Origin: a virus
Virus record (IMG/VR): IMGVR_UViG_3300037247_000703
Location: 1 to 64,000 of that record
Reading direction: 5' to 3' (one strand)
Length of the DNA: 64,000 bases
The position numbers were made by a program, and so were the translations under genes. Shown in pieces: positions 2,577-58,885 of this stretch. How positions within the stretch are numbered: the first letter of the stretch is position 1; each line of letters opens with the position of its first letter. The notes below the pieces were generated by a model that was not told the origin of the DNA, made no database searches, and worked only from the letters and a program-made list of their open reading frames with translations.

Positions 2577-3530
2577 CTAGGCGACGAGAACGTTGATGCC
2601 CTTGACGACGGCGGTTTCCTCGGCGTACTTCACGTCGAAACGCATCGTCGCGACGATGATCAGCACGCCCTCGGAGACGAGCTTGTCGGTTTCGATGCGG
2701 ATCTGACGCCAGATGCCGACGTTGATGTTCTTGGGATCGACGAGCAAGGTGTTCGTCGAGTCGTTGCCGCCGCCGAGATCCTCGGGGAACAGCGGCACAT
2801 CGATGATCGGGATGCCCGACCAGTTGACCGGCGTGTCTTGCTCCAAGAACTTGTCACCGAGAACCGTGCCGCGGTCGGCGAGGAAGTCGCGGTAGTCGAT
2901 CTCCGAGTCGATCGACGTGAAAAAGCGCATCGCGCGCTTCGTGCGCAAGAACTCGCTCGGCATCGCCTTGAGCATGTTCTTGAACAGCGTCTTGTTCGTG
3001 CGCGTGGTCGAGTGGTCGACCACGTTCGACGTCGCTTGCTTCAGGATGCCGTCGAGCACCGCGAGGAAGGTGTCCGCGCTCGCGGTATCACCTTGGATGA
3101 TGACTTCATCCATGTCGCGCGAGATCGCCTCGCCCATCAGCGTCATGATGGTCTGACGCAGGGTGCCGCCCTCGATGGAGTCTTCCAACACTTCGTTGTT
3201 CAGGCGGATTTCCGCCTTGAACAACTCAGCGTCCAGCTCCGTCTGCGTCAGATCCGGCTTCGCGCGGTCGGTCGCCGCGAGCGCTGTGGCCTCCTGCCCG
3301 GCGCGCAGCACGCGCGAGGCGAAGCGGATCTTGTTGATCTCTTGCTTGTGCGACTTCATCGGCACAACGGTCGCTTGGTTCATGATGACGGATTCGTTGA
3401 TCAGAATCCGCATGAACTTCTTGGCCTGCGCCGGGGCGAGAAGGCCGCCGTCAGTCGTCAGATCCGACAGCGCGAGATCCGCCTTCTGCAAGATGGTCTT
3501 GTTGTCCATGACGTGTGCGAGCTGCGACAT
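2577..3530 (-). CDS. Major capsid protein (HK97 fold)
   Basis: GGAGGAG RBS; N-terminal [12 protein letters not shown]; E-loop/backbone helix region ([13 protein letters not shown]...DGILK); C-terminal TMRFD; 317 aa. Confidence 0.9.
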
Positions 3531-3548: not shown

Positions 3549-4730
3549 TTAGCGGTCGAAGAATGAACGATGTGTTGGGGTGTTTTTTCGGGTCTGTTCC
3601 CGATTCAGGTCCATCGGCCAAGTCGTATCGTCATCGTCCGACCGCTGGCCCTTTTCTACCGGCAACGCGTTGGAGGTAACGCCCCTGCGCTTGCCCTTCC
3701 TGACACCTTGACGAAGTTTGCGCTCGTGACCCTCGACCTCTTTCGTGAGCTTCGTGACCGTACTGACAAGACTGTCAATCTTGGCCGCCGTCGCTTTGTC
3801 GAGTTTCGCTGTCCGATCGCCGCCGTCGTCGCCCTTCTTCTTCTCGGATTTGCCTGCACCCTCTTTCACTGCCGGGGCAAGCGAGTCTCGCAACGCGAGC
3901 AAAATTTCGACCGCTTCTTTCAACTTGTTAAAGCGGGCCGCTGACATTTTTGCGCCGGCCTTCTTCGTGCCGGTCGGGGCCTTGTCGGCCTTGCTGTATG
4001 ACGTCTTCGCCTTCCGCAAGTCGGCGATCGCCGCATCGGTCTTCTCGATGGCAACCCGCTCGTCGTCGACGTTCTTCATCGCTTCGGCGATGTTGGCGTT
4101 TGCCGCCTTGAGCGACGTCTTGAAATCGTCGTGGCCCGCCTTCGATGCGTCCGTCTTCTCTGCCGCTTCCTCTGCACGCTCGCGCAGTGCGGCCGGAAGC
4201 AACTTGTCGAGCGGGTCATCGGGATCGATCGAAGGCTTGGCGCCGAACTTGAGCTGCGCCTCGACGATGCGCGTGTGCACCACGCGCTTCGAGCTGTCGT
4301 TCTCGTAGTTGTCGGCGAACTGTTTGAACCGGGTGCGTGCGTTGTTGGCGCGGCCAGCCGTGTCGACCGGGAACTTCAGGTTAACCGGATCGGCATACAG
4401 GCTGAGCTTCGTCGGAAAGTTCGCCGGGAACGACAGGTTGCTGTTCGCTTCCAGTACTTCGACGCCGAACTTGCTCGAACGCTCCTGCCGCAGCTCGCGA
4501 AGCTCGTCATTCGTCGCGCCTTCGCGCGGCGCCTGCTTTGCTTCAGCCTTCGCAGTGACGAGATTGCCATCGTCATCCAAGACGATCTCGCCCTCGACCG
4601 TGCCGGACGTGTCACGCTTGACGATCAGAAACGGCTGCAAGTTCGCCGGACGATCCACGAGCGAAACTTCTTCGACCACGATTTCCGTGAGTCGATGAAC
4701 TTGCTCGTCGTCTTGCTTCGTTTTCGTCAT
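3549..4730 (-). CDS. Scaffold-like protein with an N-terminal prohead-protease strand ([10 protein letters not shown]) and a DUF6582-like domain
   Basis: [18 protein letters not shown] at the N-terminus; [13 protein letters not shown]...ANNARTRF motif; charged coiled-coil C-terminus; directly upstream of the capsid gene. Confidence 0.75.
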
Positions 4731-4745
4731 CTCCGTTGCGCTAAC

Positions 4746-4777: not shown

Positions 4778-7700
4778 CTACTCAGGTCGCCGAATCGCGG
4801 AACCTCCGATACTGAACCCGGTGAAGTCCCCCGCTTTCACGTCCTTCCACAGAGCATCCGATAGCACTCTGACAGCGAGCAGCCATGTACCGGCCTTGAT
4901 GACCCGCTCGCCGACGGAAAAGTCGGCGGGGGCAAGGAAGGATTCGAGGATCCTGACCTGTTTGGCGAGTTCTGTGTGCTGAATCCCGATGTTCTGGAAT
5001 TCGGCCATGAACTTGTGCGCAGCGGTCCGAACCTCGTCAGCCGAGTAGATATCCTTCTGCGCATCGACCGTCTCGGGTTCGAGGACGATCCCGTACACGA
5101 ATCTTTCTTCTTCGGCCTTCGCGATGATGAACTCGCCAACGCGGTAGCTCTTGGCGATCGCCTTCGCGGTTTCCGCTCGCGCGATTTTCCAGATTGAATC
5201 GGCGTCTTGGCCCTCGATCGTGAACACCCCCCGGAGCTTCGCGCCTTCGAAGCGAACCTTCATGCCGTCTTCAGTCTTGTCAACTACGACGGCGCGACCG
5301 CGGTCAGCAATCCAGATCGCCGAATCCCCGCTCGAATCATTCATCGGCTCGCCGCCGATCGATCCGCCGGCCTCGACGCCTCCGTCGAAATCGAGCAAAA
5401 CCTTCGAAGATCGATTGCGCTGAATACCGGCGACAGCGGCCTTGCCGATCGGGCTCGCTTGCAGCGTCCATCCGTCGAGCCCCTCGCCGTGCCGATCAAT
5501 GAACAAATGCCAAACGCTCTTGCCGTCTTTCCAGACCTGTTGCGACAGCGTGAACTGGCGCTGTTGATCGAGCGTGGCTTCTTCGATCGCAACTGACTGC
5601 ACGCCCTTGACGACGAAGTTCGACACGAAGACAAGGTTCGCGGTCGAGCACTTCTGAATCGTGAACGGCCTGCCGAACCGCGAGAAGGCGATGCGCGAAC
5701 CGAGCGAATCGGGCGCGGCGATCAGGATCGGCAGTTCGAGCGCAGCGGATTTCCGAACGAGCGAGTCAGCCGTTTCCTTTCCGTCTTGAAGCCAGCGTTT
5801 CGTCACGGCGGGATCGAGAACGATGACCGAATCGGGAAATTCCTTGGCATCGTCCGCGGTCGGGAACGCATCGTCGATCGACCACATCGCACAGCCGCGC
5901 TTGACGATGATCGCGATCACTTCCGCAAATGACTGCGGTCGCGCGAACTCGGCGTCGGCGTCAGGCTGGTCAGGCGAGATAAACCGCTTCGTCAGGATGC
6001 GCGTCAATTGATCGTTGACGACGGCCACATTCTCGCTAGTAAAAAATCCCGACTCGACGAGCGCATCCCGAACTCCTCGCGCACGATCGCCAGCCTTCCA
6101 GTAGCGATAGGCAGGGGGGACCGCGGTTTCGAGCGAGGCCGGCAGACCCGAACCGCTGGCCGGCATTCGCTTCGCCATCACCGCGCCCCACGTCAATACG
6201 TCGGGCAGTCCCTTCGAGAATTGCTCGATTTGGTCTAGCCGATCTTCGGCTTCGCCCTTCGTCGGGAAACATCCGAAATTGCGGCCGGTCGTCTCAGCAA
6301 TGACGCAGTATTCGCCATCTTCGTTTTGCTCGATGCGCTTCTCGGCTTCTTCGCGCTTCTCGGTAACTTCGAAGCGGTCGCGCATTTTGACGACAAGATC
6401 AGCGATCTCGACATGTGGCCGACTGAGATCGGGCGGGCCGCCCAGAATCTTCACGCCCTTCGCGGCATCCGCGCTGAGCATCTGCGCGATCGCTGCCTCG
6501 GCAGACTTGCGCAAGTCGCCCCCGGCGTGCACGTAGAGATTCCCATCCTGCAACACGATGACGGCCTTCTCGGCATCGAAGCTGCGCAGGCCGGCGAGCG
6601 TATCGCCCTTGGCCGCCACTCGCGCCAGCTCGCTCGCTGGCGGGACTTCCGGGTTGCCCTCCTGCGACGGCTCACCCTGCAACCGCCAGAACTCGCGCGG
6701 CGTGAGCGACGTGAGCACGCGCCCTTCGGGGGTCACGACTCGATGCGTGTGACCACCGTCGAATGCGGTCGTCTCGACCTGCATCTCGTGATCGTGGAAT
6801 CCCTCGATCTCGGTGCGTAGCTCGGTGCCGTCGGGAAGCACGAGCGCATGAACGTGCTCACCGTCCCATCCGATGTGCTCGCTGTCTTCGTCGTGAGAAA
6901 ATATCTTGTGCTCGTGCTCGCCGTCTTCGTTCGTCACAACGAGCGTGCCATCGGGCAACACGAACAGGTGGGTGTGCGCGCCGTCGAACTTCGTGCTGCT
7001 GTTGTCGCGATCAATCGCGTGAACGTGAATGCCCGCCTCGGCGTTGCCGCTCGGGAATCCTTTGACCATCGAGTTCGCGCTAAAATCTTCTTCGAGCGCC
7101 TTGAGCGCCTGTTCGCTGATCTCGTAGTTCGAGATCAGCAGATGCACGAACGGCTTGCCGTCAGACCGGGGCGCCGTGTGCCGACTCTCGATCTTTTTGA
7201 CGTGAAATCCGGTCGTGTCGATCTCGGATTTGGCCGTATAGGTGACAAGGAACTTGCCCTTGATCTCCTTGAGCGCCTCGACGAACTCTTCTTCGTCGAA
7301 CGCGTTTTCGCCGACCATCGCGTCGTGGCCGACGTAAGGCGGATCGAGAAAGAAAAACGCATCTTCAGCGTCGTACTTCTTCACCGTGTCGAGATAACTG
7401 CCGGTCAAAACCTCGACGTCTTTCAGGCGATCGCGGAACTTCTCGATCCGTTTCGTGGATGTAAGCCGCGAGCCTTCCTGCGCCGGGTTAAACCCCGCGC
7501 GCGCCTCGCTGCCGGCCACTCCCCCGAACGCGAATCCCGACACGTACAGAAAACGGTGCAGCCGGTCGACCTTGTCGACCGGCTGCTCGCTTGTTCGCAA
7601 TGACGAGTAGAGATCCTTGCTGCCGATCCATTCCTTTTTTTCGAGCTGCTCGAATTCGTCGTCGGTCAGGGTCTGAATCGCCTTGAATGCGAAGGTGATC

Positions 7701-7897
7701 TCCGGGTCAATGTCGTTGATGACCTCGACCTCGGAGGCATCCTTCGCGAACAAGACTGCCGCGGACCCCGCGAACGGTTCGACGTACACCCTGTGTTCGG
7801 GGATGATCGCCGCGAGCGTTTTCGCAAGACGCTTCTTCCCCGCCGGGGAAGACCAGATCGTTTTACCGATCTGGCCGATGTGGTCGGGGAAGGGCAT
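4778..7897 (-). CDS. Polyprotein: Dam-like N6-adenine methyltransferase + His-repeat domain + degenerate LigD-phosphoesterase-like domain + XkdF-like prohead protease
   Basis: YVEPFAGSAAV, INDID and FFLDPPY motifs; six G-x-H-x-H repeats; C-terminal ERFVYGIVLEPETVDAQKD...IGIQH...GTWLL...GFSIGG. Confidence 0.85.
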   Translation of the reverse strand: MPFPDHIGQIGKTIWSSPAGKKRLAKTLAAIIPEHRVYVEPFAGSAAVLFAKDASEVEVINDIDPEITFAFKAIQTLTDDEFEQLEKKEWIGSKDLYSSLRTSEQPVDKVDRLHRFLYVSGFAFGGVAGSEARAGFNPAQEGSRLTSTKRIEKFRDRLKDVEVLTGSYLDTVKKYDAEDAFFFLDPPYVGHDAMVGENAFDEEEFVEALKEIKGKFLVTYTAKSEIDTTGFHVKKIESRHTAPRSDGKPFVHLLISNYEISEQALKALEEDFSANSMVKGFPSGNAEAGIHVHAIDRDNSSTKFDGAHTHLFVLPDGTLVVTNEDGEHEHKIFSHDEDSEHIGWDGEHVHALVLPDGTELRTEIEGFHDHEMQVETTAFDGGHTHRVVTPEGRVLTSLTPREFWRLQGEPSQEGNPEVPPASELARVAAKGDTLAGLRSFDAEKAVIVLQDGNLYVHAGGDLRKSAEAAIAQMLSADAAKGVKILGGPPDLSRPHVEIADLVVKMRDRFEVTEKREEAEKRIEQNEDGEYCVIAETTGRNFGCFPTKGEAEDRLDQIEQFSKGLPDVLTWGAVMAKRMPASGSGLPASLETAVPPAYRYWKAGDRARGVRDALVESGFFTSENVAVVNDQLTRILTKRFISPDQPDADAEFARPQSFAEVIAIIVKRGCAMWSIDDAFPTADDAKEFPDSVIVLDPAVTKRWLQDGKETADSLVRKSAALELPILIAAPDSLGSRIAFSRFGRPFTIQKCSTANLVFVSNFVVKGVQSVAIEEATLDQQRQFTLSQQVWKDGKSVWHLFIDRHGEGLDGWTLQASPIGKAAVAGIQRNRSSKVLLDFDGGVEAGGSIGGEPMNDSSGDSAIWIADRGRAVVVDKTEDGMKVRFEGAKLRGVFTIEGQDADSIWKIARAETAKAIAKSYRVGEFIIAKAEEERFVYGIVLEPETVDAQKDIYSADEVRTAAHKFMAEFQNIGIQHTELAKQVRILESFLAPADFSVGERVIKAGTWLLAVRVLSDALWKDVKAGDFTGFSIGGSAIRRPE

Positions 7898-7916: not shown

Positions 7917-8612
7917 CTAGTGCTGCGTCGAGGCTTCGGGATCCTTGCCCCAATCGTACAGCTCGCGAACTTCGTCGTCGCCGAACGACTTGGCGAGATC
8001 CATCGGCCAGCCCTCGGCCGCGTCAGCGCCAGCCGCCTTCTTCGCGGCAGCGGCCTCTTCTTCGGCCTTCTTTTTGTCGGCGTCTTTCTTTTTGTCGGCG
8101 TCGGCCTTCGCTTTCGCCTTCTCGGCGTCGGTCTGGGCGGCACCCTCGCCCTCGCCTTCGCCTTCGCCCTTGCCTTCTCCTTCGCCGGCACCGGCACCTT
8201 CTCCCTCGCCTTCGCCTTCTCCCTTGCCTTCTCCTTCGCCGGCACCCTCGCCTTCGCCTTCGCCGCCCGCAGCGATTTTGGCGGTCAACTCGGCGACCGT
8301 GGCTTCGAGTCCGGCGACCTTCTTCGCCATGTCGGCCTCGGCCTGCGCGGCTTCGTCGAAGACGGGGATCTCGAACTTGTCCAGCTCCTTCGCGACGAAG
8401 GCGCTGCTCGCGACCGCGATCGACGTTCGCAACGCCGTCAGGCGCGCGATCGCCTTCTCGACCGTGTCGGCCTTCGCCTTCTCGATCTCGCCCGTGGCAT
8501 GCGTTGCGAACTCGTCGGCGGTCATCTCCTTCATGACGAGAGCGGCATCACCCGCATGCCCCTTGAGCACGGTTGCACACGCATCGCTCAGTGACTTGAA
8601 GATTGTTTTCAT
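7917..8612 (-). CDS. Acidic scaffold-like protein with a Gly-Glu repeat linker
   Basis: AGGAG RBS; coiled coil followed by (GE)n tract and a C-terminal WPMDL motif. Confidence 0.75.
   Translation of the reverse strand: MKTIFKSLSDACATVLKGHAGDAALVMKEMTADEFATHATGEIEKAKADTVEKAIARLTALRTSIAVASSAFVAKELDKFEIPVFDEAAQAEADMAKKVAGLEATVAELTAKIAAGGEGEGEGAGEGEGKGEGEGEGEGAGAGEGEGKGEGEGEGEGAAQTDAEKAKAKADADKKKDADKKKAEEEAAAAKKAAGADAAEGWPMDLAKSFGDDEVRELYDWGKDPEASTQH
8142..8266 (-). repeat. Coding low-complexity (GGC GAG/GAA)n repeat encoding GEGEG
   Basis: Tandem CCTTCG/CCCTCG hexamers on the plus strand. Confidence 0.85.
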
Positions 8613-8635
8613 GACTCGGATCTCCTGTTGCGGTT

Positions 8636-8989: not shown

Positions 8990-10048
8990 CTAAATGTCGG
9001 GTACGACGATTGAGCGACAACCGCCGTGCAGAGGGGGCATCGTAACGCCCGCAGCCTGTAGCTCAACGTCGCTTAGAGTGTTTGAAAAACGGCCTATTTT
9101 GTCGCGCTGGCCTACCGCAGACTCGACCACGGTCGCCAGCCTCTGAGGCTCGCCGCCGGGCGGGCTGATCTGGATCTCCTGCCCTCCTTCAACGTTTCGT
9201 GTGCGCGCGAACGGCTGCACGTTTCGAATATCGAGCGGATCGGGCAGGGCCTCGATCTTGTCGAATGTCTGGATACCGAGATCGACCGAGAAGAATCGAC
9301 CGTGCATCATTCGGCACACGTCCGACGTGACTTCATCAAGCATCGCCTCGAAGATGAAGCGACGAATGTCGGCATCCTTGAACGCCGAGAGCTGACCGAA
9401 CGTGCGTGACCGATTGACGAAGACGCCGGCCGCGACATTCCAATAATTTTTTGATCTGGCGATGCCGTTCGCTCTGAGATTCTTGTCAAGTCTACCGGCG
9501 ATCTGATCTCGGCCTTCGCCGCGAGCGAGCCCGCCGCTCACGATCTGCCGCGCTTGTCGCGAGAAGACTTCCGAGCGCTGCCCGAACTCGTGCGTGATGT
9601 AGTTACCCTGACTGCTGACATTGAAGTCGATCACGCGCTTGTCAAACGCGTTGGTAGCGACCGCGATGTTGAGGTTGTGCCGGGTGCGCGTAGCCTTTCG
9701 TGTTTCACCAGTCAGTCGCGGACTCTCGACTTCAGCAACGCCGATGACGCCGGGCATCACAGCATTCGCGGAATCGCGAATTATCTGCGAACTCTGCTCA
9801 ATGAATCGGCGCCGCTGTTTCTGGGTTAGCCTCGGCCAGTCACGATCGAGATTTTTGATCGCGCGATCGAGTGCGACTCGCTCAGGCTTCGCGGCTCGCT
9901 CAAATGCCGCCGCCAGACGAATCGACAACACGACAAAATCTTTTCGGTTGAGCGGATTGAGCGCCTTGCGAATATCGATCCCGAACACATCGCAGAGGAC
10001 CGCATCGCAGGCAGCAACGCCGCGCGCATATAGCTCAGTCCGTTGCAT
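8990..10048 (-). CDS. MuF/SPP1 gp7-like minor head protein
   Basis: Follows the portal; FEAMLDEVTSDVCRMMHGR and C-terminal PPLHGGCRSIVVP motifs. Confidence 0.85.
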   Translation of the reverse strand: MQRTELYARGVAACDAVLCDVFGIDIRKALNPLNRKDFVVLSIRLAAAFERAAKPERVALDRAIKNLDRDWPRLTQKQRRRFIEQSSQIIRDSANAVMPGVIGVAEVESPRLTGETRKATRTRHNLNIAVATNAFDKRVIDFNVSSQGNYITHEFGQRSEVFSRQARQIVSGGLARGEGRDQIAGRLDKNLRANGIARSKNYWNVAAGVFVNRSRTFGQLSAFKDADIRRFIFEAMLDEVTSDVCRMMHGRFFSVDLGIQTFDKIEALPDPLDIRNVQPFARTRNVEGGQEIQISPPGGEPQRLATVVESAVGQRDKIGRFSNTLSDVELQAAGVTMPPLHGGCRSIVVPDI

Positions 10049-12083
10049 CGCCGCCGGTCAACTCGCGCTCGGCTTCGGCTTCGGTCGCCTTCTTCAAAAC
10101 CTCACGCAACTTGATCAGCGCGATCGCCTGTCGGTCAAGCTCGTAGCTCGCGAGAACGCGCTCGATGTTCGACTTGATCTGTGGTCGCAATCTGCGGAAA
10201 CGACGAGCGCCGGGGGCATTCGAGAACGGACCGCCGAAGGGGCCACCTTGCGCGGGCGCCCGCGTGCCCGGCCCTCCGGTCGTTAGGTCGGCCATGTCGA
10301 GCAACTCACCGCCGCCCTGTTCGAGCAAATCGAGCATGTCGCCGAACGCCTCGGCCTCTGCCTCCGGCGTGGCATCGGGATCCTCGCCTTCGTCTTCGGT
10401 GACGATCTCGCCGTCTTCGCCCGTCTGGATTCCGGCCACGGTGAGCGGCACCGGTTGCTTCGCCCAATCGGCGGTGATTGTGCGGAACTCGCGATTGAAG
10501 ACTTCCTCAAGGAGCGGACGCATGTCGAGCGCGGTCACCGCGTTGGAGTTCATCAGATCCTTGATCATCTTCGCGACGACTGCCGGATCGCGAGTGACAG
10601 GCGCGTTCGAAACGTATTTCCAGTAACGGATCCCGAACTCATTGAGCAGCAACCGACGATTGATCATGAAGTCGAAATCTTCACGCTCGGGCTGGAAGAC
10701 TTGCATCTCCGCGAACGCGAGGGCAGCGTCAGCGGTTGCGCGGTTGAAATCACGGATATCGCCGCGCAGCATTCGAGGCAACCGGAACGACATGCCAACC
10801 TTGTCGATGTTGCGTTCGTCATAGTTTTGAAACAGCGCGTCGTTGTGCTGCGCTGCGGTCAGCGGCTTCATCTCGATCTTCACGCGGCCCGAATTTTCGC
10901 TCGCCTTGCTCGATACCGTCTCCGCTTCTAACACCATGACCGAGTGAAAGTTCTTGCGGCCCTTGATGTTGTTCTGAATGAAATCCTTGATGCGTTCGAC
11001 CGAGTTGCCCGACAGCTTGCCGCCACTGATCAAAAGTGCCATCGGCGGAACGCCCTTGCCATCGAAGTAGAGAAAGTTCACTTCCTCGGATTGGCGCGAA
11101 CCAATCACCGAGAGCAGATTGCCGATCCATCGCGGCACGCCATAGGCCGATTCGGGATTGTGAATCGGAAAGTAGAGCAACTCGGTCGCGGGACCGTCGC
11201 TTTCATCTTCGAATTCCGCTTTGCCCTCTTCGTTCGTCGGCATGACCTTGCCAGTCTTCTTCGAGATCACGCGCGGGTCGCCGAACTCCTTGAAGAAGAC
11301 TTCCCGATCTTCAAAAACCTGAATGAAGCGGCGGAACCGTCGCTGCACTGCCACGTCTTCGAATGACAGATCGGAAATACGCACGCGCATCTCGACCTCG
11401 ACGGGATCATCGAGCGGCATCAGGCGAATGCTGAATGCGGGCAAATAGTTGAACTGTACGACTTCACCGCCGTCGTTGCGCAGCGCTTCCCATGTCCCCC
11501 AACCGATAACCTCGCGATCTTGCCGTGACCGCTGGCGCAGTTCCGAAAACGAAATGTCGGGGCAACAGAAGTCGAAGAAGTTTTTGAGCCACGCCTTCTC
11601 AAGCTGCATTTGCAGTTTGATTTCTTCTTTCGCTTTGCCGACGTCTTCATCGGTCGGAATCAACTCGCCGACGTCTTCGGACATGGCCTCGCGCGGATCG
11701 ACACCCTTGTCGTGCAGGCTTTCGAGAAACAGCGCGTTCTTGATTCGTTCGTCAGCGTCTTCACTTTCGAGGTTGATGACCGGCTCGAATCTGTGGCCGA
11801 AGCCGTCGATGTTCGTCTGGTACGCGTCAATATTGGGACGCAGGGAGTTCGAAACCCGATAGAGCGCACACAGATCGTCGGGCTCGAACGGCGGAACCAA
11901 TGCGCCATGCGTGGAGAACCTATTGCTGACTCCGGCCTCGATGACGTTCGAGGTAGGGAGATTTCCGCGATCGATAAAGTGCGCCTTGATCAGCGGTGAC
12001 GTATCGAGCATGTCGCGCAGATTGCGCGGCTCGTCGGGATCAGTCTTCACCTGTCGCGTGTCACTCTTTTCTTCGTCGCCCAC
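10035..12083 (-). CDS. Portal protein (PBSX/XkdE-like)
   Basis: YGVPRW, NFLYFDGKGVP, FRLPRMLRG, FNRATA motifs; GAGG RBS before GTG. Confidence 0.9.
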   Translation of the reverse strand: MGDEEKSDTRQVKTDPDEPRNLRDMLDTSPLIKAHFIDRGNLPTSNVIEAGVSNRFSTHGALVPPFEPDDLCALYRVSNSLRPNIDAYQTNIDGFGHRFEPVINLESEDADERIKNALFLESLHDKGVDPREAMSEDVGELIPTDEDVGKAKEEIKLQMQLEKAWLKNFFDFCCPDISFSELRQRSRQDREVIGWGTWEALRNDGGEVVQFNYLPAFSIRLMPLDDPVEVEMRVRISDLSFEDVAVQRRFRRFIQVFEDREVFFKEFGDPRVISKKTGKVMPTNEEGKAEFEDESDGPATELLYFPIHNPESAYGVPRWIGNLLSVIGSRQSEEVNFLYFDGKGVPPMALLISGGKLSGNSVERIKDFIQNNIKGRKNFHSVMVLEAETVSSKASENSGRVKIEMKPLTAAQHNDALFQNYDERNIDKVGMSFRLPRMLRGDIRDFNRATADAALAFAEMQVFQPEREDFDFMINRRLLLNEFGIRYWKYVSNAPVTRDPAVVAKMIKDLMNSNAVTALDMRPLLEEVFNREFRTITADWAKQPVPLTVAGIQTGEDGEIVTEDEGEDPDATPEAEAEAFGDMLDLLEQGGGELLDMADLTTGGPGTRAPAQGGPFGGPFSNAPGARRFRRLRPQIKSNIERVLASYELDRQAIALIKLREVLKKATEAEAERELTGGDATD

Positions 12084-12401: not shown

Positions 12402-14657
12402 TCAATCGATGATGTGGATGCCGATAATCGCACCCTCGCTTCGTAAGGTGCGATCCTTACTGCACGCAAGGGCGCAGGCCCAAAAACGATCAGCGTGACC
12501 CTTATCGGTCGTGTCTGTGCTCGTGAGCTGTGTTCGTCCAGCCGGCGTGATCTTGCGGCGAATCGAATGGATCTGCGACACGAGTTCCCGCTCGCGGGGC
12601 AGCACAATCAGACTCTTCTGTAAGCCGATCTTGAAATCGGTGGCCCACGTTTCTTTCGATGGCCCGGTGAACGTGACGCCCTCGACTTGCGGATAGTCGT
12701 CGGCAAGATTTTCGGTCAAGTGCATGCCGATACCATTTTGATCGATCAGCATTCGACCGATCGGCAACAGGTTCAGCATCTGCCGAAGGCTCGCCTCTTG
12801 CGTTTGAAATTTCACCTTGTCGTAGCGCTTGAGTAGCCGGCAGATGAAGCGACCGTCATCAAGCTCGTCGAAGATCGCGAGTTCGGAAAAGTCTTTCTTG
12901 CGACCGACGTCGAAGCCCGCGTGAAGTCGGCCAATGTGTTTGACCTGCGAGAAGTCGTCAGCAAGTTCGAGCGAATCGTTCGTCGCCGGAAGAATCAGCT
13001 CATAGGGAAAAAACGACATCGCTTCGTCGACGTAGACAACCTCAAACTCCTGCTGAAAGTCATCGAGCGGAAGCGAGGAAAACTGTTCCTTGATGCCCTG
13101 CGTACCGAAGCGCGCAACCCGTTCTTCGGTCGCCATCTTCAACGCATCGCGCGAGGCCGTCACAACGTCGTTGCAGAAGAACGAACACAGCCACCACGGA
13201 ACCTTTTGCCGCCAATAGGATCCGTAGGGCCGAAGCTCTTGGCGGGCGATCTCCCAAAACTGCCCGCGCCGGCCAAGCGGAGACGAGCACACCGTCATCT
13301 GTCCCTTCGCTCGAAGGATCAGCGCGGTCGATCCTTTGTAGACCTCCCTATCGTTGGCGTAGTGAGCAAGCTCGTCGAGGTAAATATCGCCCTTCTTCCC
13401 GCGAGGCGCACGAGACGGATGCGAGATGATTCGACTGACGCGCTTGCTCGACGAGTTGGATCGGAAACCGAGTTCGAGCTTCGAGTCGACGACCTTTTTC
13501 TTCTGAAATTCGAGCGGCAATTCTTCGTGTAGCTGCGCGGCGTAGGCGATCTTTTCTTTCGAGTCAGCGAGGTTGTACGAAACGAAAATCGAGTTGTGGG
13601 TTTCCCGAAGATGTGACCGGGCGATTGCCTCGCATGCGAAGAGAAACGAATAACCAACCTGTCTGCCCTTTTCAACACAGCGATACGGGGCGCGCGTGGC
13701 GAGAAATGCTTGCTGATAGGGTTCGAGCCTCAGCGGCTCGTCATCGAAGCGGGCGATACCCTGGAGAAACCCCGATTCCGTGGCGATCCACTCGCTGAAC
13801 TCTTCCTCGGTGCGTTTAACAACAATGAGCGGCCCTGAGTTGCTTTGTGTTTCCTCTTTTGCTACAATAGCGGCAGACGCACTATCACCATCAGGAGGCA
13901 ACCCATGAGTTTCGCCAATCGGGGGCGACCCCCCATCACTTTGACCGACGTCGAGCAAGCCCGGCTTCTCACTGTCAGCGGAGAGCACCGTGACGGGTTC
14001 CGTGACCACATCATTTTCGCTGTCGCCCTCGGTACTGCCTTGCGCGAATTCGAGATCGCCGCCCTCAACGTCGGCGACGTAGTGACGGGCCAGCTCAATC
14101 GCCGCACTCCAGGCATCAAGCGGCGCGTCACCCTCACCATCTTCAAGCGATGCGCCCAGAAGCCCGCCCCGCAGCAAGTCTTCCTCCCCGATTCGCTCAT
14201 CCACAAGATGCGAACCTTCATCAAGTGGAAGATCAGCAACGGGGAGAACGTCGAGCCCGGCGCCCCGCTGTTCATCAGCCGCAAGGGCAATCGAATCAGT
14301 CCACGCACTCTCCGGTTCATGTTCGCCAACTGGCAGCAGCGCGCCGGCTTCGACCGCCGGTTCACTTTCCACCACCTCCGGCATACCGCCCTGACCAACA
14401 TCTATCGGCGCACTCGGGATATCCGTGTCGTTCAGCGAGCTGCCCGGCACGCCAACATCAACACCACCACAATCTACGCCACCCCCACTGACGAAGATAT
14501 CTTGCGGGCCGTCCGCGACCTGCCCTGTTAGACTCTCGTTGTTCCGCGAGGACGCGGCGGGCATTGCTTCTCCCAAAGGAGGCACAACTAGCTTCGCCCT
14601 CGCGGGCTCTTTTTCGAGCTGCTCAGCGAGCAGCGCTTGAAACGAGAGCTTCCCCAC
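12402..14657 (-). CDS. terL: Large terminase subunit; conserved part is about 12402..13830; N-terminal ~270 codons overlap an antisense recombinase
   Basis: EPYQQAFL, Walker A KGRQVGYS, Walker B IYLDELAH, SSP motif, nuclease GFDVG and HADRFWA. True start uncertain. Confidence 0.85.
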   Translation of the reverse strand: MGKLSFQALLAEQLEKEPARAKLVVPPLGEAMPAASSRNNESLTGQVADGPQDIFVSGGGVDCGGVDVGVPGSSLNDTDIPSAPIDVGQGGMPEVVESEPAVEAGALLPVGEHEPESAWTDSIALAADEQRGAGLDVLPVADLPLDEGSHLVDERIGEEDLLRGGLLGASLEDGEGDAPLDAWSAAIELARHYVADVEGGDLEFAQGSTEGDSENDVVTEPVTVLSADSEKPGLLDVGQSDGGSPPIGETHGLPPDGDSASAAIVAKEETQSNSGPLIVVKRTEEEFSEWIATESGFLQGIARFDDEPLRLEPYQQAFLATRAPYRCVEKGRQVGYSFLFACEAIARSHLRETHNSIFVSYNLADSKEKIAYAAQLHEELPLEFQKKKVVDSKLELGFRSNSSSKRVSRIISHPSRAPRGKKGDIYLDELAHYANDREVYKGSTALILRAKGQMTVCSSPLGRRGQFWEIARQELRPYGSYWRQKVPWWLCSFFCNDVVTASRDALKMATEERVARFGTQGIKEQFSSLPLDDFQQEFEVVYVDEAMSFFPYELILPATNDSLELADDFSQVKHIGRLHAGFDVGRKKDFSELAIFDELDDGRFICRLLKRYDKVKFQTQEASLRQMLNLLPIGRMLIDQNGIGMHLTENLADDYPQVEGVTFTGPSKETWATDFKIGLQKSLIVLPRERELVSQIHSIRRKITPAGRTQLTSTDTTDKGHADRFWACALACSKDRTLRSEGAIIGIHIID
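13840..13868 (+). promoter_or_regulatory. Sigma70-like promoter of the recombinase
   Basis: TTGCTT (13840-45), 17 nt, TACAAT (13863-68) with TG extension; AGGAGG RBS at 13893. Confidence 0.7.
13893..14584 (+). repeat. Direct repeat AGGAGGCA (13893-13900 and 14577-14584), 684 bp apart, flanking the recombinase
   Basis: Exact 8-mer, each copy followed 5-7 nt later by AG(T/C)TTCGCC. Confidence 0.5.
13905..14531 (+). CDS. Tyrosine recombinase, catalytic domain only (208 aa)
   Basis: RDHII..ALGTALREFEI (Arg-I), FK, HHLRH (HxxR), RHANINTTTIY (His, Tyr); ATG at 13905 after AGGAGG. Confidence 0.92.
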   Translation: MSFANRGRPPITLTDVEQARLLTVSGEHRDGFRDHIIFAVALGTALREFEIAALNVGDVVTGQLNRRTPGIKRRVTLTIFKRCAQKPAPQQVFLPDSLIHKMRTFIKWKISNGENVEPGAPLFISRKGNRISPRTLRFMFANWQQRAGFDRRFTFHHLRHTALTNIYRRTRDIRVVQRAARHANINTTTIYATPTDEDILRAVRDLPC

Positions 14658-56714: not shown

Positions 56715-58514
56715 TCAACTCTCTCCCTGTTCGAGTTCGTGAAGACCGTGCGGCAAGTCCGCATCGGGTTCGGCAATCCTCTGCGCATAGATCGACATTC
56801 CAATCGCGCGATCCCATGCGTCGAGTGCGCGTTCTGCGTCAGTCAGCTCTGGTTCATCTTCCGTGATTGTCTGTTCGGAATCGGCCGCCGCCTGATCGAG
56901 CAGCGCTTCCGCGCTGTCGAGAAATTGTGACTCGGCCGCCGCTTGTAATCGCTCGGTCATGTCGAGCTGTTCGAAGCGAGTCTTCTCGTCGACGCCGGCT
57001 GCCTTGAGTAACGGGGCTTGTTCGGCCTCCCACTCTTCCCAGAACTTGATCCGAGCACGCGCGAGCGCGGCGTGCTTCTCGCCCAGCTCGAACCCGAGGA
57101 AGTCGAAGCCCTCGATGACGGCCGCGCAACCGGTCGGCCCCGACCCGCAGAACGGATCGAGCACGACGCCGCCCGGGGGTGTGATGATGCGGACGAGCCA
57201 CGACATGAGCGCGACCGACTTGACCGTCGGATGCGTGTTCTTGGCGCCCCCTGTGCGCCCTGCGCCCGCCCGCGGATTCCCGAGCCCCTTGCTCCCATCC
57301 TTGCGATCGGTCGCCTGACCGGCTGTGGACGCCTCGAACGCGTCGAGGCCCGCGTCACGCTCAGCCCGGCTGGGCTTGGCCTCGTAGCGGAAGGTCGCGA
57401 AGAACCGCGAGGCCCCGCCTATGTCGCCATAGGTGGCTAGACTGTCGGTCAGGTTTGGCTTCCGCGAACCGTGGGCGCGTGTCGATATGGCGGTGCGCCC
57501 GCTGTCGGCGTTGCTCCGGGCAATGCCGCCGCCCGCTAAGCCGCTTTGACGGTCTAGCTCAGCGACGGGGCACCCGACAGCGCAGTTCCACAGCACGACG
57601 CTCTCGTCGCCATACAGCGGCCCTGACGGCTTGTTGTCGCCGGCCTCGGCTCCGGTGTCCACAAAGCCCGCTGGCCGGCTCCCCTGACTACCCTGACGCC
57701 GGTCGCCGCGGATATGCCCCGTGCCAACAGGCTCGCAGTCCGGCCCGTGCGACAGGATCAGGTTCGCCGGCCAGCGGCCACCGTTCTTGCCGGCCACGGC
57801 TGAGCGGTTCGTGCTCGCCCAGCCGCTCGCCGACATCGTTGACTTGCCGAGTTGTCGTTCGAGCTTCTCGTCGGTGCCGATGCGACAGGCATCAATATTG
57901 AGCGCGCCCGTGCCGTACAGCAACACGTTGCGCGCGACAGTCTTCTCGATCGGTTTGCGCGCGAGAATCCAATGCTCGGTAGCTGGCTTGAGTGCAGTTC
58001 CCCAACCTTCCCACTGCTTGGCGGATTCTGTGGCAGGAGCGGTTATGTCCATCGATCCACCCTTGTCGGGACCGCTGCCGTAAACAAAGTTAGGTCCGTA
58101 GCTTTCCAGCTTCGAAACACTGCCGACGACATCACGCTCAGCCCCCGCCGCCCTGTCGATCGCCTTGCTCACGTCGAGCGACTTTGGAAAGCCGTTGCCG
58201 AAATGGTGATGCACGATGTCGCGGATCTCGAACTGCGCATCTTCGATCGCAAACGCGGTCCAATGAGAGGTACGAGGCAGAGCCCACACGAGCAGGTGCC
58301 CACCCGGCTTGAGTACGCGATAGCACTGCGACATGATCGTGAACAGCCAATCGATCCAGACGTCGCGCCCGCCTTTGTTCGAATCCCACTTTTTCCCCAT
58401 GAACGAAATGCCAGCGGGCGGATCGGTCACGATCGAGTCGATGCACTCGTCAGGCAACGCTGGCAAACCGAAACGTCGATCCATGTTCGGCGCGGTGATC
58501 ACGTTCCACGTCAT
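56715..58514 (-). CDS. N6A/N4C DNA methyltransferase (beta arrangement) with a large insertion
   Basis: IDSIVTDPPA; RVLKPGG; HPTVK; VLDPFCGSGPTG; ATGA-coupled start at 58514. Confidence 0.88.
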   Translation of the reverse strand: MTWNVITAPNMDRRFGLPALPDECIDSIVTDPPAGISFMGKKWDSNKGGRDVWIDWLFTIMSQCYRVLKPGGHLLVWALPRTSHWTAFAIEDAQFEIRDIVHHHFGNGFPKSLDVSKAIDRAAGAERDVVGSVSKLESYGPNFVYGSGPDKGGSMDITAPATESAKQWEGWGTALKPATEHWILARKPIEKTVARNVLLYGTGALNIDACRIGTDEKLERQLGKSTMSASGWASTNRSAVAGKNGGRWPANLILSHGPDCEPVGTGHIRGDRRQGSQGSRPAGFVDTGAEAGDNKPSGPLYGDESVVLWNCAVGCPVAELDRQSGLAGGGIARSNADSGRTAISTRAHGSRKPNLTDSLATYGDIGGASRFFATFRYEAKPSRAERDAGLDAFEASTAGQATDRKDGSKGLGNPRAGAGRTGGAKNTHPTVKSVALMSWLVRIITPPGGVVLDPFCGSGPTGCAAVIEGFDFLGFELGEKHAALARARIKFWEEWEAEQAPLLKAAGVDEKTRFEQLDMTERLQAAAESQFLDSAEALLDQAAADSEQTITEDEPELTDAERALDAWDRAIGMSIYAQRIAEPDADLPHGLHELEQGES

Positions 58515-58885
58515 TCGGCTAGGCCCCCATTGATGACCGACAGCTCTGCCCACGAGTCGAGCACGCGATACTCGATCGGGATGCCGCGCCCCTCGGCGTG
58601 TGCGATCCCGTACTGCATGCCCTTCGTGATTCCGAGGTTCGTATAGACGACCGTGGCATCGGCGACATCGCGCCACAGGAAGCCCGCCTGAATGCCTCGC
58701 TCGCGCTCGACCGGGATGCGATCATCGAGCACGCCCGGCTGAGTGTAGAGACCGTGCGAGGCGTAGGGGGCTTCGTCGTGGTTGACGATAGCATCGCGCA
58801 TGCACGCTCGAAGGAAGCGCAGGTTGCGCTCGACGATCTGATCGTCGTCGCTACCGTAAGGCGACTCGATGACGACGCGCCTCAT
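58511..58885 (-). CDS. Nucleoside-deoxyribosyltransferase-like (DUF4406/DUF7768-type) protein
   Basis: VVIESPY, APYASH, GITKGMQYGI..A...GIPIEYR. Confidence 0.7.
   Translation of the reverse strand: MRRVVIESPYGSDDDQIVERNLRFLRACMRDAIVNHDEAPYASHGLYTQPGVLDDRIPVERERGIQAGFLWRDVADATVVYTNLGITKGMQYGIAHAEGRGIPIEYRVLDSWAELSVINGGLAE

Follow-up and report, generated by a model that had tools for sequence, protein, structure and literature searches.

A methyltransferase-bearing prohead protease as a candidate cargo carrier in a myxobacteria-type phage

Introduction

Why would a phage join a DNA methyltransferase to the protease that matures its head? The question is raised by one gene, here called P0001, of a virus known from the IMG/VR record IMGVR_UViG_3300037247_000703 (100,330 bp, CheckV completeness 85%), of which the first 64 kb were analysed and are referred to as the window. 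A first-pass annotation had described P0001 as a single 1039-aa open reading frame (ORF) lying among the head genes, with an alpha-class adenine methyltransferase (MTase) at the N-terminus and an XkdF-like protease at the C-terminus. It had suggested that the MTase is loaded into the head, released by cleavage, and then either methylates DNA during packaging or is ejected with the DNA as anti-restriction cargo. The analysis reported here makes it somewhat probable that P0001 is a prohead protease bearing cargo, one of the "polyvalent proteins" of phages, and that its MTase is loaded into the head and delivered with the DNA.

Results

A methyltransferase and an XkdF-type protease at the two ends of one chain

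The ORF and its two terminal domains are as follows.

4778-7897, minus strand: whole polyprotein ORF (P0001), 1039 aa, stop codon included
7082-7870, minus strand: D12 (Dam-like, alpha-class) N6-adenine DNA methyltransferase, active-looking, aa 10-272
7760-7780, minus strand: motif I, binding S-adenosylmethionine (SAM), EPFAGSA, aa 40-46
7334-7345, minus strand: catalytic motif IV, DPPY, aa 185-188
4796-5128, minus strand: XkdF-type (Peptidase_S78_2) prohead protease domain, aa 924-1034, stopping 5 residues before the chain end

The reading frame was found where it had been placed, on the minus strand, which had not been given before; its product has a predicted mass of 113 kDa, and its homologues show 36-91% identity across most or all of the length. 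The identity of both ends was borne out as well. At the N-terminus, Pfam recognised PF02086 (D12 MTase) at aa 20-203 with 86.9 bits (cut-off 22; E 2.5e-24), and in PHROGs the same end matched phrog_13242 (E 1e-110) and phrog_56. Motif I lies in the context VEPFAGSAAV (aa 39-48) and motif IV in LDPPYVG (aa 184-190); because motif I stands before motif IV, the domain was assigned to the alpha class. EPFAGS and DPPY are near-invariant across 74 relatives. Profile searches of the PDB matched the domain to Mcbe1, DpnM and E. coli Dam. An AlphaFold model of P0001 was built from a 76-sequence alignment, with a mean predicted local distance difference test (pLDDT) of 78.7, and the fold matches of the MTase obtained with VIA were 7m6b (Mcbe1; Z 21.6), E. 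coli Dam (20.8), DpnM (19.6) and T4 Dam (17.4), at a root-mean-square deviation (rmsd) of 2.6-3.1 Å over 214-233 aligned residues. The tetranucleotide GATC occurs in the window at expectation (652 observed, 670 expected), a count that is compatible with a GATC specificity of the MTase, without demonstrating it.

At the other end, PF14550 (XkdF) was matched at aa 924-1034 with 103.8 bits (cut-off 24; E 8.6e-30; profile positions 5-122 of 126), and this C-terminus also matched phrog_3017, "head maturation protease". Alignments A2 and A6 show H974 and S1029 (GFSIGG) without any variation; the corresponding residues are likewise fixed in A4 and A5, and almost so in A3. By analogy with S78 proteases we take this His and Ser to be the catalytic pair. 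The slot of PF14550 genes between portal/MuF and scaffold/capsid is common to the cultured phages PAK_P1, Lactococcus 56701 and RHph_Y1_11. Since no ClpP, S49 or complete S78 protease was found anywhere in the 100-kb record, XkdF is the sole candidate for the head protease of this record. A comparison with the gp21-type fold was made on the relative P0160 only, whose model aligned to T4 gp21 (5jbl) with Z 8.0, an rmsd of 3.0 Å and 20% identity over 116 residues.

The fusion is genuine and widespread

A search covering 5.8 billion proteins returned 173 relatives of 571-1819 aa at E <= 0.001, and both Pfam domains were present in all but two of the 120 listed. Pattern-based locus searches fetched 79 viral contigs and 80 genomic loci. 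Domain hidden Markov models made from close relatives revealed chains in which one, two or three tandem methyltransferase (MT) domains precede XkdF. In about 140 independent loci the MT and XkdF domains share a single stop-free frame; 64 of these loci have the layout MT-XkdF, 43 have MT-MT-XkdF, and about 12 have three MT copies. An artefact of assembly or a frameshift, which the first-pass annotation had named as the way in which the fusion might prove false, was ruled out, the one-frame layout being kept across loci from unrelated samples.

The MT copies have kept their catalytic motifs: DPPY (or DPPW/DPPH) is retained in 265 of the 267 domain copies of the family, and a motif I of the form FxGxG in 257. 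The three tandem copies of the relative P0020 were compared with one another and proved only 35-48% identical. Because the tandem copies have diverged this far and still keep the motifs, their sequences suggest active enzymes with different specificities. A conserved module of about 90 aa (...INDLPDSAFLYIEPGGEKDEDGKTVPRSLRHFPVR...LDLPHLRNALARIPQ...) was also seen between methylase copies or before XkdF in P0007-P0019, P0024 and L105; it resembles a DUF6582-like stretch that is weakly matched in the scaffold protein (E 0.0046).

About 70 viral contigs keep the gene order TerL, portal, MuF, fusion, scaffold, capsid, adaptor, as do prophages of cultured Myxococcus, Corallococcus and Citreicoccus strains; across these loci the capsid proteins diverge to 26-84% identity. 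The genomic matches are mostly Myxococcota; the cultured prophage hosts include Corallococcus exercitus (with strain SDU142), C. carmarthensis, C. praedator, Myxococcus xanthus AM003, M. qinghaiensis, Myxococcus sp. Y35 and Citreicoccus inhibens (with strain M34). Megablast with 20 kb of the locus found nothing among cultured phages, and the literature searched held nothing specific on MTase-XkdF fusions or on methylases of Myxococcus prophages. The phage is an uncultured one of the myxobacteria type, and a large lineage of phages and prophages of Myxococcota shares its layout.

Related XkdF proteins carry other enzymes, and the methyltransferase is optional

One relative of CheckV completeness 100% (111,873 bp) keeps the protein with the His repeats, the middle domain and XkdF, the protease being 67% identical, and has no D12 MTase anywhere. 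The MTase is therefore dispensable, an optional cargo and not a part of head assembly.

To see what else the protease domain carries, we surveyed its relatives, as the first-pass annotation had proposed. A HMMER scan of 1.84 billion representatives with the XkdF domain gave 5977 clusters at E <= 0.001. In most of the best 150 relatives XkdF lies at or near the C-terminus, with anything from 0 to about 2000 residues in front of it. Pfam, run on 130 XkdF proteins, detected D12 MTase in 24, InPase in 20, ATP-dependent DNA ligase in 9 and 2H phosphoesterases in 4-6; rarer finds were a Tad3-like piece in 3 (partial), UDG in 1, and an intein. Examples of whole chains are 2H, His repeats, ligase, UDG and XkdF, in that order, and a phosphoesterase (PE) fold followed by ligase and XkdF, a LigD-like pair; in BFVD a zeta-toxin domain was found fused to XkdF. 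Closely related XkdF proteins do, then, bear other nucleic-acid and counter-defence enzymes, most of which would make sense only against incoming or damaged DNA or against host signalling molecules. The relative P0224 (2190 aa) is an XkdF polyprotein with an intein and a LAGLIDADG endonuclease (Hint_2, LAGLIDADG_3), and it additionally carries a PE fold, a partial Tad3-like match and a DNA ligase.

These results lend partial support to the view of the MTase as head cargo: the MTase is optional, other enzymes ride on related XkdF domains, and the catalytic motifs are kept. Restriction also seems to have left its mark on the genome. Under a maximal-order Markov model of the window (positions 1-64,000), several 6-bp palindromes were strongly depleted (observed/expected): CTCGAG 0/57.5, GAGCTC 1/27.8, AGATCT 0/22.1, AAGCTT 0/17.7, CAGCTG 2/19.1, CACGTG 0/14.2 and AGGCCT 0/13.6. 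Because of these depletions we read the genome as one that is under strong restriction pressure.

Further modules lie between the two ends

The picture of a two-domain fusion did not hold between the ends, where about 650 residues contain at least four further modules. The model shows well-defined domains separated by low-confidence linkers at aa 278-283, 413-445, 500-518, 639-652 and 911-928, and the following features were distinguished.

6698-7042, minus strand: six (D)GxHxH beta-hairpin repeats, aa ~286-400
6344-6700, minus strand: poorly predicted segment, aa 400-518, pLDDT 34-59, conserved among close relatives only
6209-6343, minus strand: small beta3-alpha insert, aa 519-563 (EDGEYCVIAE...), phrog_2859, pLDDT 71-89
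5588-6202, minus strand: conserved middle domain, aa 566-770, pLDDT ~90
5174-5563, minus strand: domain with the fold of the LigD 3'-phosphoesterase (PE), aa 779-908

All His and Gly positions of the GxHxH repeats are invariant, including in a 36%-identical relative and in relatives that have no MTase; the repeats are rich in beta strand in the model (pLDDT 54-93), recur in about 25 other XkdF proteins and have no Pfam match. They are presumed to bind metal. The insert at aa 519-563 is variably present in relatives and is missing in P0004 and P0006.

The middle domain, present in about 90 of the 146 related proteins, is the module seen most often upstream of XkdF. What remains of a D12 methyltransferase, with DPPY degraded to DPAV, makes up the C-terminal half of this domain (aa 668-764); hhalign aligned this relic to third-copy MTase domains with a probability of 98.6% (E 1.2e-15, 91 columns).

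The PE-fold domain was recognised by structure. Foldseek matched aa 779-908 to 3p43/3p4h (E 7e-6 to 1.5e-5), and VIA gave Z 14.8 for 3p4h (rmsd 2.4 Å, 115/118 residues) and Z 12.8 for the PE domain of P. aeruginosa LigD (3n9b). Pfam gave no match even at E 10, and the PDB profile search gave nothing better than E 0.13. The only invariant residues of the domain are F782, G806, R882, G885 and L888; the QKH and EDH positions of the P. aeruginosa enzyme were unmatched in a by-eye comparison. The domain apparently lacks the known LigD catalytic residues (the Mn-binding and catalytic His, Asp, Arg and Tyr).

No family was found for the His repeats, for the insert at aa 519-563 or for the N-terminal half of the middle domain, Pfam at E 10 returning only noise; the ESM Atlas gave no usable match, and searches of PDB and BFVD with the whole model returned mostly methyltransferases. 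Taken together, the chain appears to consist of a live methylase, a dead methylase, a dead end-repair fold, a metal-repeat module and a protease. P0001 holds at least two unrelated effector-type domains in a virion-gene context, which is the mark of a polyvalent protein.

The head-gene cluster and a scaffold protein that may complete the protease

In the order of transcription on the minus strand, the cluster reads TerL, portal, MuF, acidic ORF, fusion, scaffold-like ORF, HK97-fold capsid protein and adaptor, so that the prohead-protease slot assigned to P0001 from the start is indeed the one it occupies. The features outside the fusion are these.

12402-14657, minus strand: TerL
10035-12083, minus strand: portal
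8990-10048, minus strand: MuF, a separate ordinary gene
7917-8612, minus strand: acidic 231-aa ORF with GEGE repeats and a WPMDL motif, directly upstream of the fusion; homologues in some relatives
3549-4730, minus strand: scaffold-like protein P0267, 393 aa, starting 47 nt downstream of the fusion
4614-4697, minus strand: near-invariant N-terminal motif (28 residues) of the scaffold protein, candidate docking site and candidate for the last strand that the protease fold lacks
3603-3620, minus strand: WPMDLN motif near the scaffold C-terminus
2577-3530, minus strand: HK97-fold capsid protein
56715-58676, minus strand: second, unrelated DNA methyltransferase, PF01555 N6/N4 class, 653 aa, in the replication arm

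P0267 matches the scaffold part of phrog_3017 (profile positions 206-338), its gene position is conserved in all loci, and in the model of the related fusion P0160 the scaffold region is a helical coiled-coil. No other part of the scaffold gene is as conserved as the N-terminal motif. In 110 of 111 loci the motif opens a gene of its own; in P0024, P0041, P0160 and P0164 it lies within the chain, 45-53 aa after GFSIGG; P0001 itself ends 5 residues after GFSIGG, with no tail of its own. Part of the Pfam S78 (HK97 protease) profile, positions 117-149 of 165, weakly matches 4635-4733 (E 0.004). In the P0160 model the motif forms a ten-residue strand, and the alignment of that model to T4 gp21 spans residues 170-339, the motif included. 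We infer from this that the protease fold is completed by the scaffold N-terminus, or offers it a docking surface, and that the cargo chain would in this way be pulled into the procapsid.

Joining of P0001 to the scaffold by read-through or frameshifting was considered and rejected, because an in-frame TGA comes two codons after the TAG stop, the scaffold starts in a different frame with an ATG 47 nt downstream of the ORF, and the genes are separate in 110 of the 111 loci.

The WPMDL motif is found near the C-terminus of the acidic ORF as well. Scaffold homologues conserve it as W-P-[ML]-D-[LM]-N, followed by ...SFHDL, and a conserved pattern of this kind is possibly a capsid-binding signal or a signal for protease recognition or cleavage.

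The second MTase, which the first-pass annotation had noticed in the replication arm, lies there among primase, helicase and nuclease genes and is the sole other MTase among ten large ORFs scanned; across all 100,330 bp of the record there is a single D12 domain and a single XkdF domain.

Two further observations concern the neighbouring genes. The TerL ORF is 751 aa long, with terminase domains that begin only at about aa 307-329, and phrog_22646 (function unknown) covers its aa 278-546, overlapping the start of those domains. In the prophage clade of the Myxococcus/Corallococcus type, homology to the capsid protein switches reading frame at one same point, between ...MGFLL and TSVDADLDY.... 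At least 11 independent loci, which come from different species and samples, show this (L116, L132, L148, L153, L156 and L157, at ~8600-8620; L040, L043, L044, L046 and L048). The switch may be a programmed frameshift that has been conserved, or a defect that these loci share because the element has been domesticated.

Discussion

The reading that we consider somewhat probable, namely that P0001 is a protease that carries enzymes into the head and onward to the next host, can be laid out as a sequence of steps. The XkdF domain would dock onto the N-terminal strand of the scaffold, a strand that HK97-type enzymes have within their own protease fold. The scaffold, acting through the WPMDLN region at its C-terminus, would bring the whole chain into the assembling procapsid. 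There the protease would cleave the scaffold and the linkers. The folded MTase, being too big for the capsid pores, would be retained in the head and would enter the next host with the DNA. With cellular SAM it could then methylate phage DNA from time zero, ahead of the expression of this late gene, and the replicating genomes would be shielded from restriction. The dead methylase relic and the dead LigD-PE fold would be former cargo that has decayed or turned structural.

How far is such a design already known? The internal proteins of T4 enter the prohead with the scaffold core, are cut by gp21 and are ejected with the DNA, and one of them, IPI*, is an anti-restriction protein. T4 cargo is encoded by separate genes and bears a short N-terminal capsid-targeting peptide, whereas the cargo of P0001 is covalently joined to the protease. 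Another T4 protein, Alt, is described as head-loaded in passages of the paper that defined polyvalent proteins (Iyer, Burroughs, Anand, de Souza and Aravind, 2017, J Bacteriol, PMC5512222). According to those passages, the assemblin-like peptidase of polyvalent proteins is always C-terminal, delivery with the virion is predicted, N6A methylase, InPase and 2H are typical domains, and the peptidase class is "rather limited in distribution". P0001 agrees with them in having several enzymatic domains on one chain among virion genes with the peptidase at the C-terminus; it departs from them in its XkdF domain, its kin's arrays of D12 MTases, the strand borne on the scaffold and the dead methylase and phosphoesterase modules, none of which appears in the passages at hand. 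A later paper of the same group calls XkdF "unrelated" to the SH/assemblin superfamily (PMC7824862), a verdict against which the alignment of the P0160 model to T4 gp21 (Z 8.0) may be set. The general design was already predicted in 2017; undescribed are XkdF in the role of anchor, the arrays of methylases, the modules that have decayed and the strand carried by the scaffold.

Phage P1 provides the experimental precedent for a methyltransferase protein packaged in the head. In the Dar system, as three papers describe it (PMC9024508, PMC12810830, PMC5512222), the methyltransferase/helicase DarB is packaged together with DarA, Hdf and DdrA/B; an MTase-bearing protein thus becomes part of the capsid while the head is being formed, and it guards incoming DNA from restriction. 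Unlike P0001, DarB in these accounts is not fused to a head protease, needs DarA and Hdf for loading and belongs to another MTase family with a helicase partner; its function has been shown by genetics, whereas P0001 is known from sequence. Effectors and toxins fused to MuF offer a second likeness, since in them, too, a head-internal assembly protein carries variable enzymatic domains (passages of PMC5512222). There the carrier is MuF and the cargo is C-terminal; in P0001 the carrier is the protease and the cargo is N-terminal.

The standalone XkdF proteins of cultured phages (Pakpunavirus PAK_P1 gp3, the Lactococcus P335 group, Rhizobium phage RHph_Y1_11) belong to the same family and sit in the same slot between portal and scaffold/capsid, but they have no MTase. 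XkdF-only proteins of 156-349 aa are nevertheless labelled "DNA methyltransferase" or "DNA methyltransferase/prohead protease", and phrog_1530 likewise; three examples are given here.

2983-3453 in PAK_P1 (L002): XkdF-only protein, apparently mislabelled
4881-5930 in Lactococcus phage 56701 (L003): XkdF-only protein, apparently mislabelled
6965-7603 in RHph_Y1_11 (L001): XkdF-only protein, apparently mislabelled

From their domain content, these labels appear to be a carry-over from MTase-XkdF fusions.

Three other explanations of the gene have to be weighed against delivery with the virion. The MTase might act late in the cytoplasm of the producing cell, on a chain that is uncleaved or cleaves itself, and methylate progeny DNA before packaging like an ordinary phage Dam; fusion to the protease would then give just late timing and a fixed stoichiometry, or would remove the enzyme into proheads for degradation. 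Standalone D12 MTases are indeed common in phages, GATC is abundant and unavoided in the window, and methylation in a packed capsid would seem implausible. What we find hard to reconcile with this explanation, and what makes it in our judgement rather unlikely, is that ligase, UDG, 2H, InPase and Tad3-like enzymes sit on the same protease domain and that up to three MTases are chained to one head protein, both of which it leaves unexplained. The phage, moreover, already owns an MTase in its replication arm, and prohead proteases are normally inactive until assembly, as is established for HK97 and T4. A smaller likelihood still attaches to a packaging-time role, the first of the two options in the first-pass annotation, in which the MTase freed in the procapsid methylates the DNA as it enters the head. 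The enzyme would be concentrated at the point of DNA entry, but DNA is packaged at rates of hundreds of bp per second or higher, base flipping requires free B-DNA, SAM would be restricted to the bound cofactor, and the ligase and UDG cargo of relatives would have neither ATP nor a purpose inside a capsid; we regard this option as very improbable.

It is also conceivable that XkdF is mainly an anchor to the capsid interior and that the 113-kDa chain stays intact in the head, to be ejected whole or left behind, its domains forming a DNA-organising inner body. Two middle modules that are catalytically dead and yet conserved, and a His-repeat module that is invariant and unexplained, would fit such a structural role, and the virion RNA polymerase of phage N4 is packaged unprocessed (according to a passage of PMC5512222). 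Against it stand the invariant His and Ser of the protease and the lack of another head protease, which make the domain most likely active, as well as the flexible low-confidence linkers between the modules. We consider an uncleaved chain unlikely, more so than the late cytoplasmic methylase and less so than methylation during packaging.

Several points count against the delivery of cargo by the protease as well. Pfam itself labels XkdF only a "putative" protease, and the literature searched yielded no experimental work on an XkdF protease. The match of P0160 to gp21 is middling (Z 8.0), its listed range marks only the two outermost residues of the alignment, and the docking strand has low confidence in that model (pLDDT ~56). 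Among cultured phages no true fusion was found in a collection of 50,697 records (tblastn with P0001 and with a compact 574-aa fusion; no record reached at least 80% coverage). The MT-MT and MT-XkdF junctions show no recurring cleavage motif. Tad3 is matched only in part (31 bits, over positions 1-60 of a 119-position profile), and InPase follows XkdF in about a dozen relatives, so that XkdF is not always last. An enzyme that acted before assembly would, in addition, already methylate the virion DNA, and delivery would then not be strictly needed.

A broader proposal, which we put forward tentatively and as clearly less assured than the delivery of the MTase itself, is that XkdF may be a general modular vehicle for counter-defence and DNA-repair enzymes. 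Its fold would be split, with the last strand on the scaffold N-terminus, and complementation by that strand would both tether the cargo and activate the protease only in the assembling head. The arrays of one to three diverged Dam-like methylases in Myxococcota phages might on this proposal be a virion-delivered anti-restriction cargo of multiple specificities.

If P0001 does deliver its cargo with the virion, the head-maturation protease would be a delivery vehicle that brings late-made enzymes (methylases, ligases, phosphoesterases and signal-degrading domains) into the first minutes of the next infection, and a counter-defence route that has so far only been predicted would be widespread, with thousands of metagenomic proteins. 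A practical by-product for annotation is that the XkdF-only proteases of Pakpunavirus, the P335 group of Lactococcus phages and other phages, and phrog_1530, can be recognised as apparently mislabelled. The system would be a natural one for loading foreign enzymes into capsids, and the prophages of the family in cultured Myxococcus, Corallococcus and Citreicoccus strains make the delivery of enzymes by a head protease testable at the bench.

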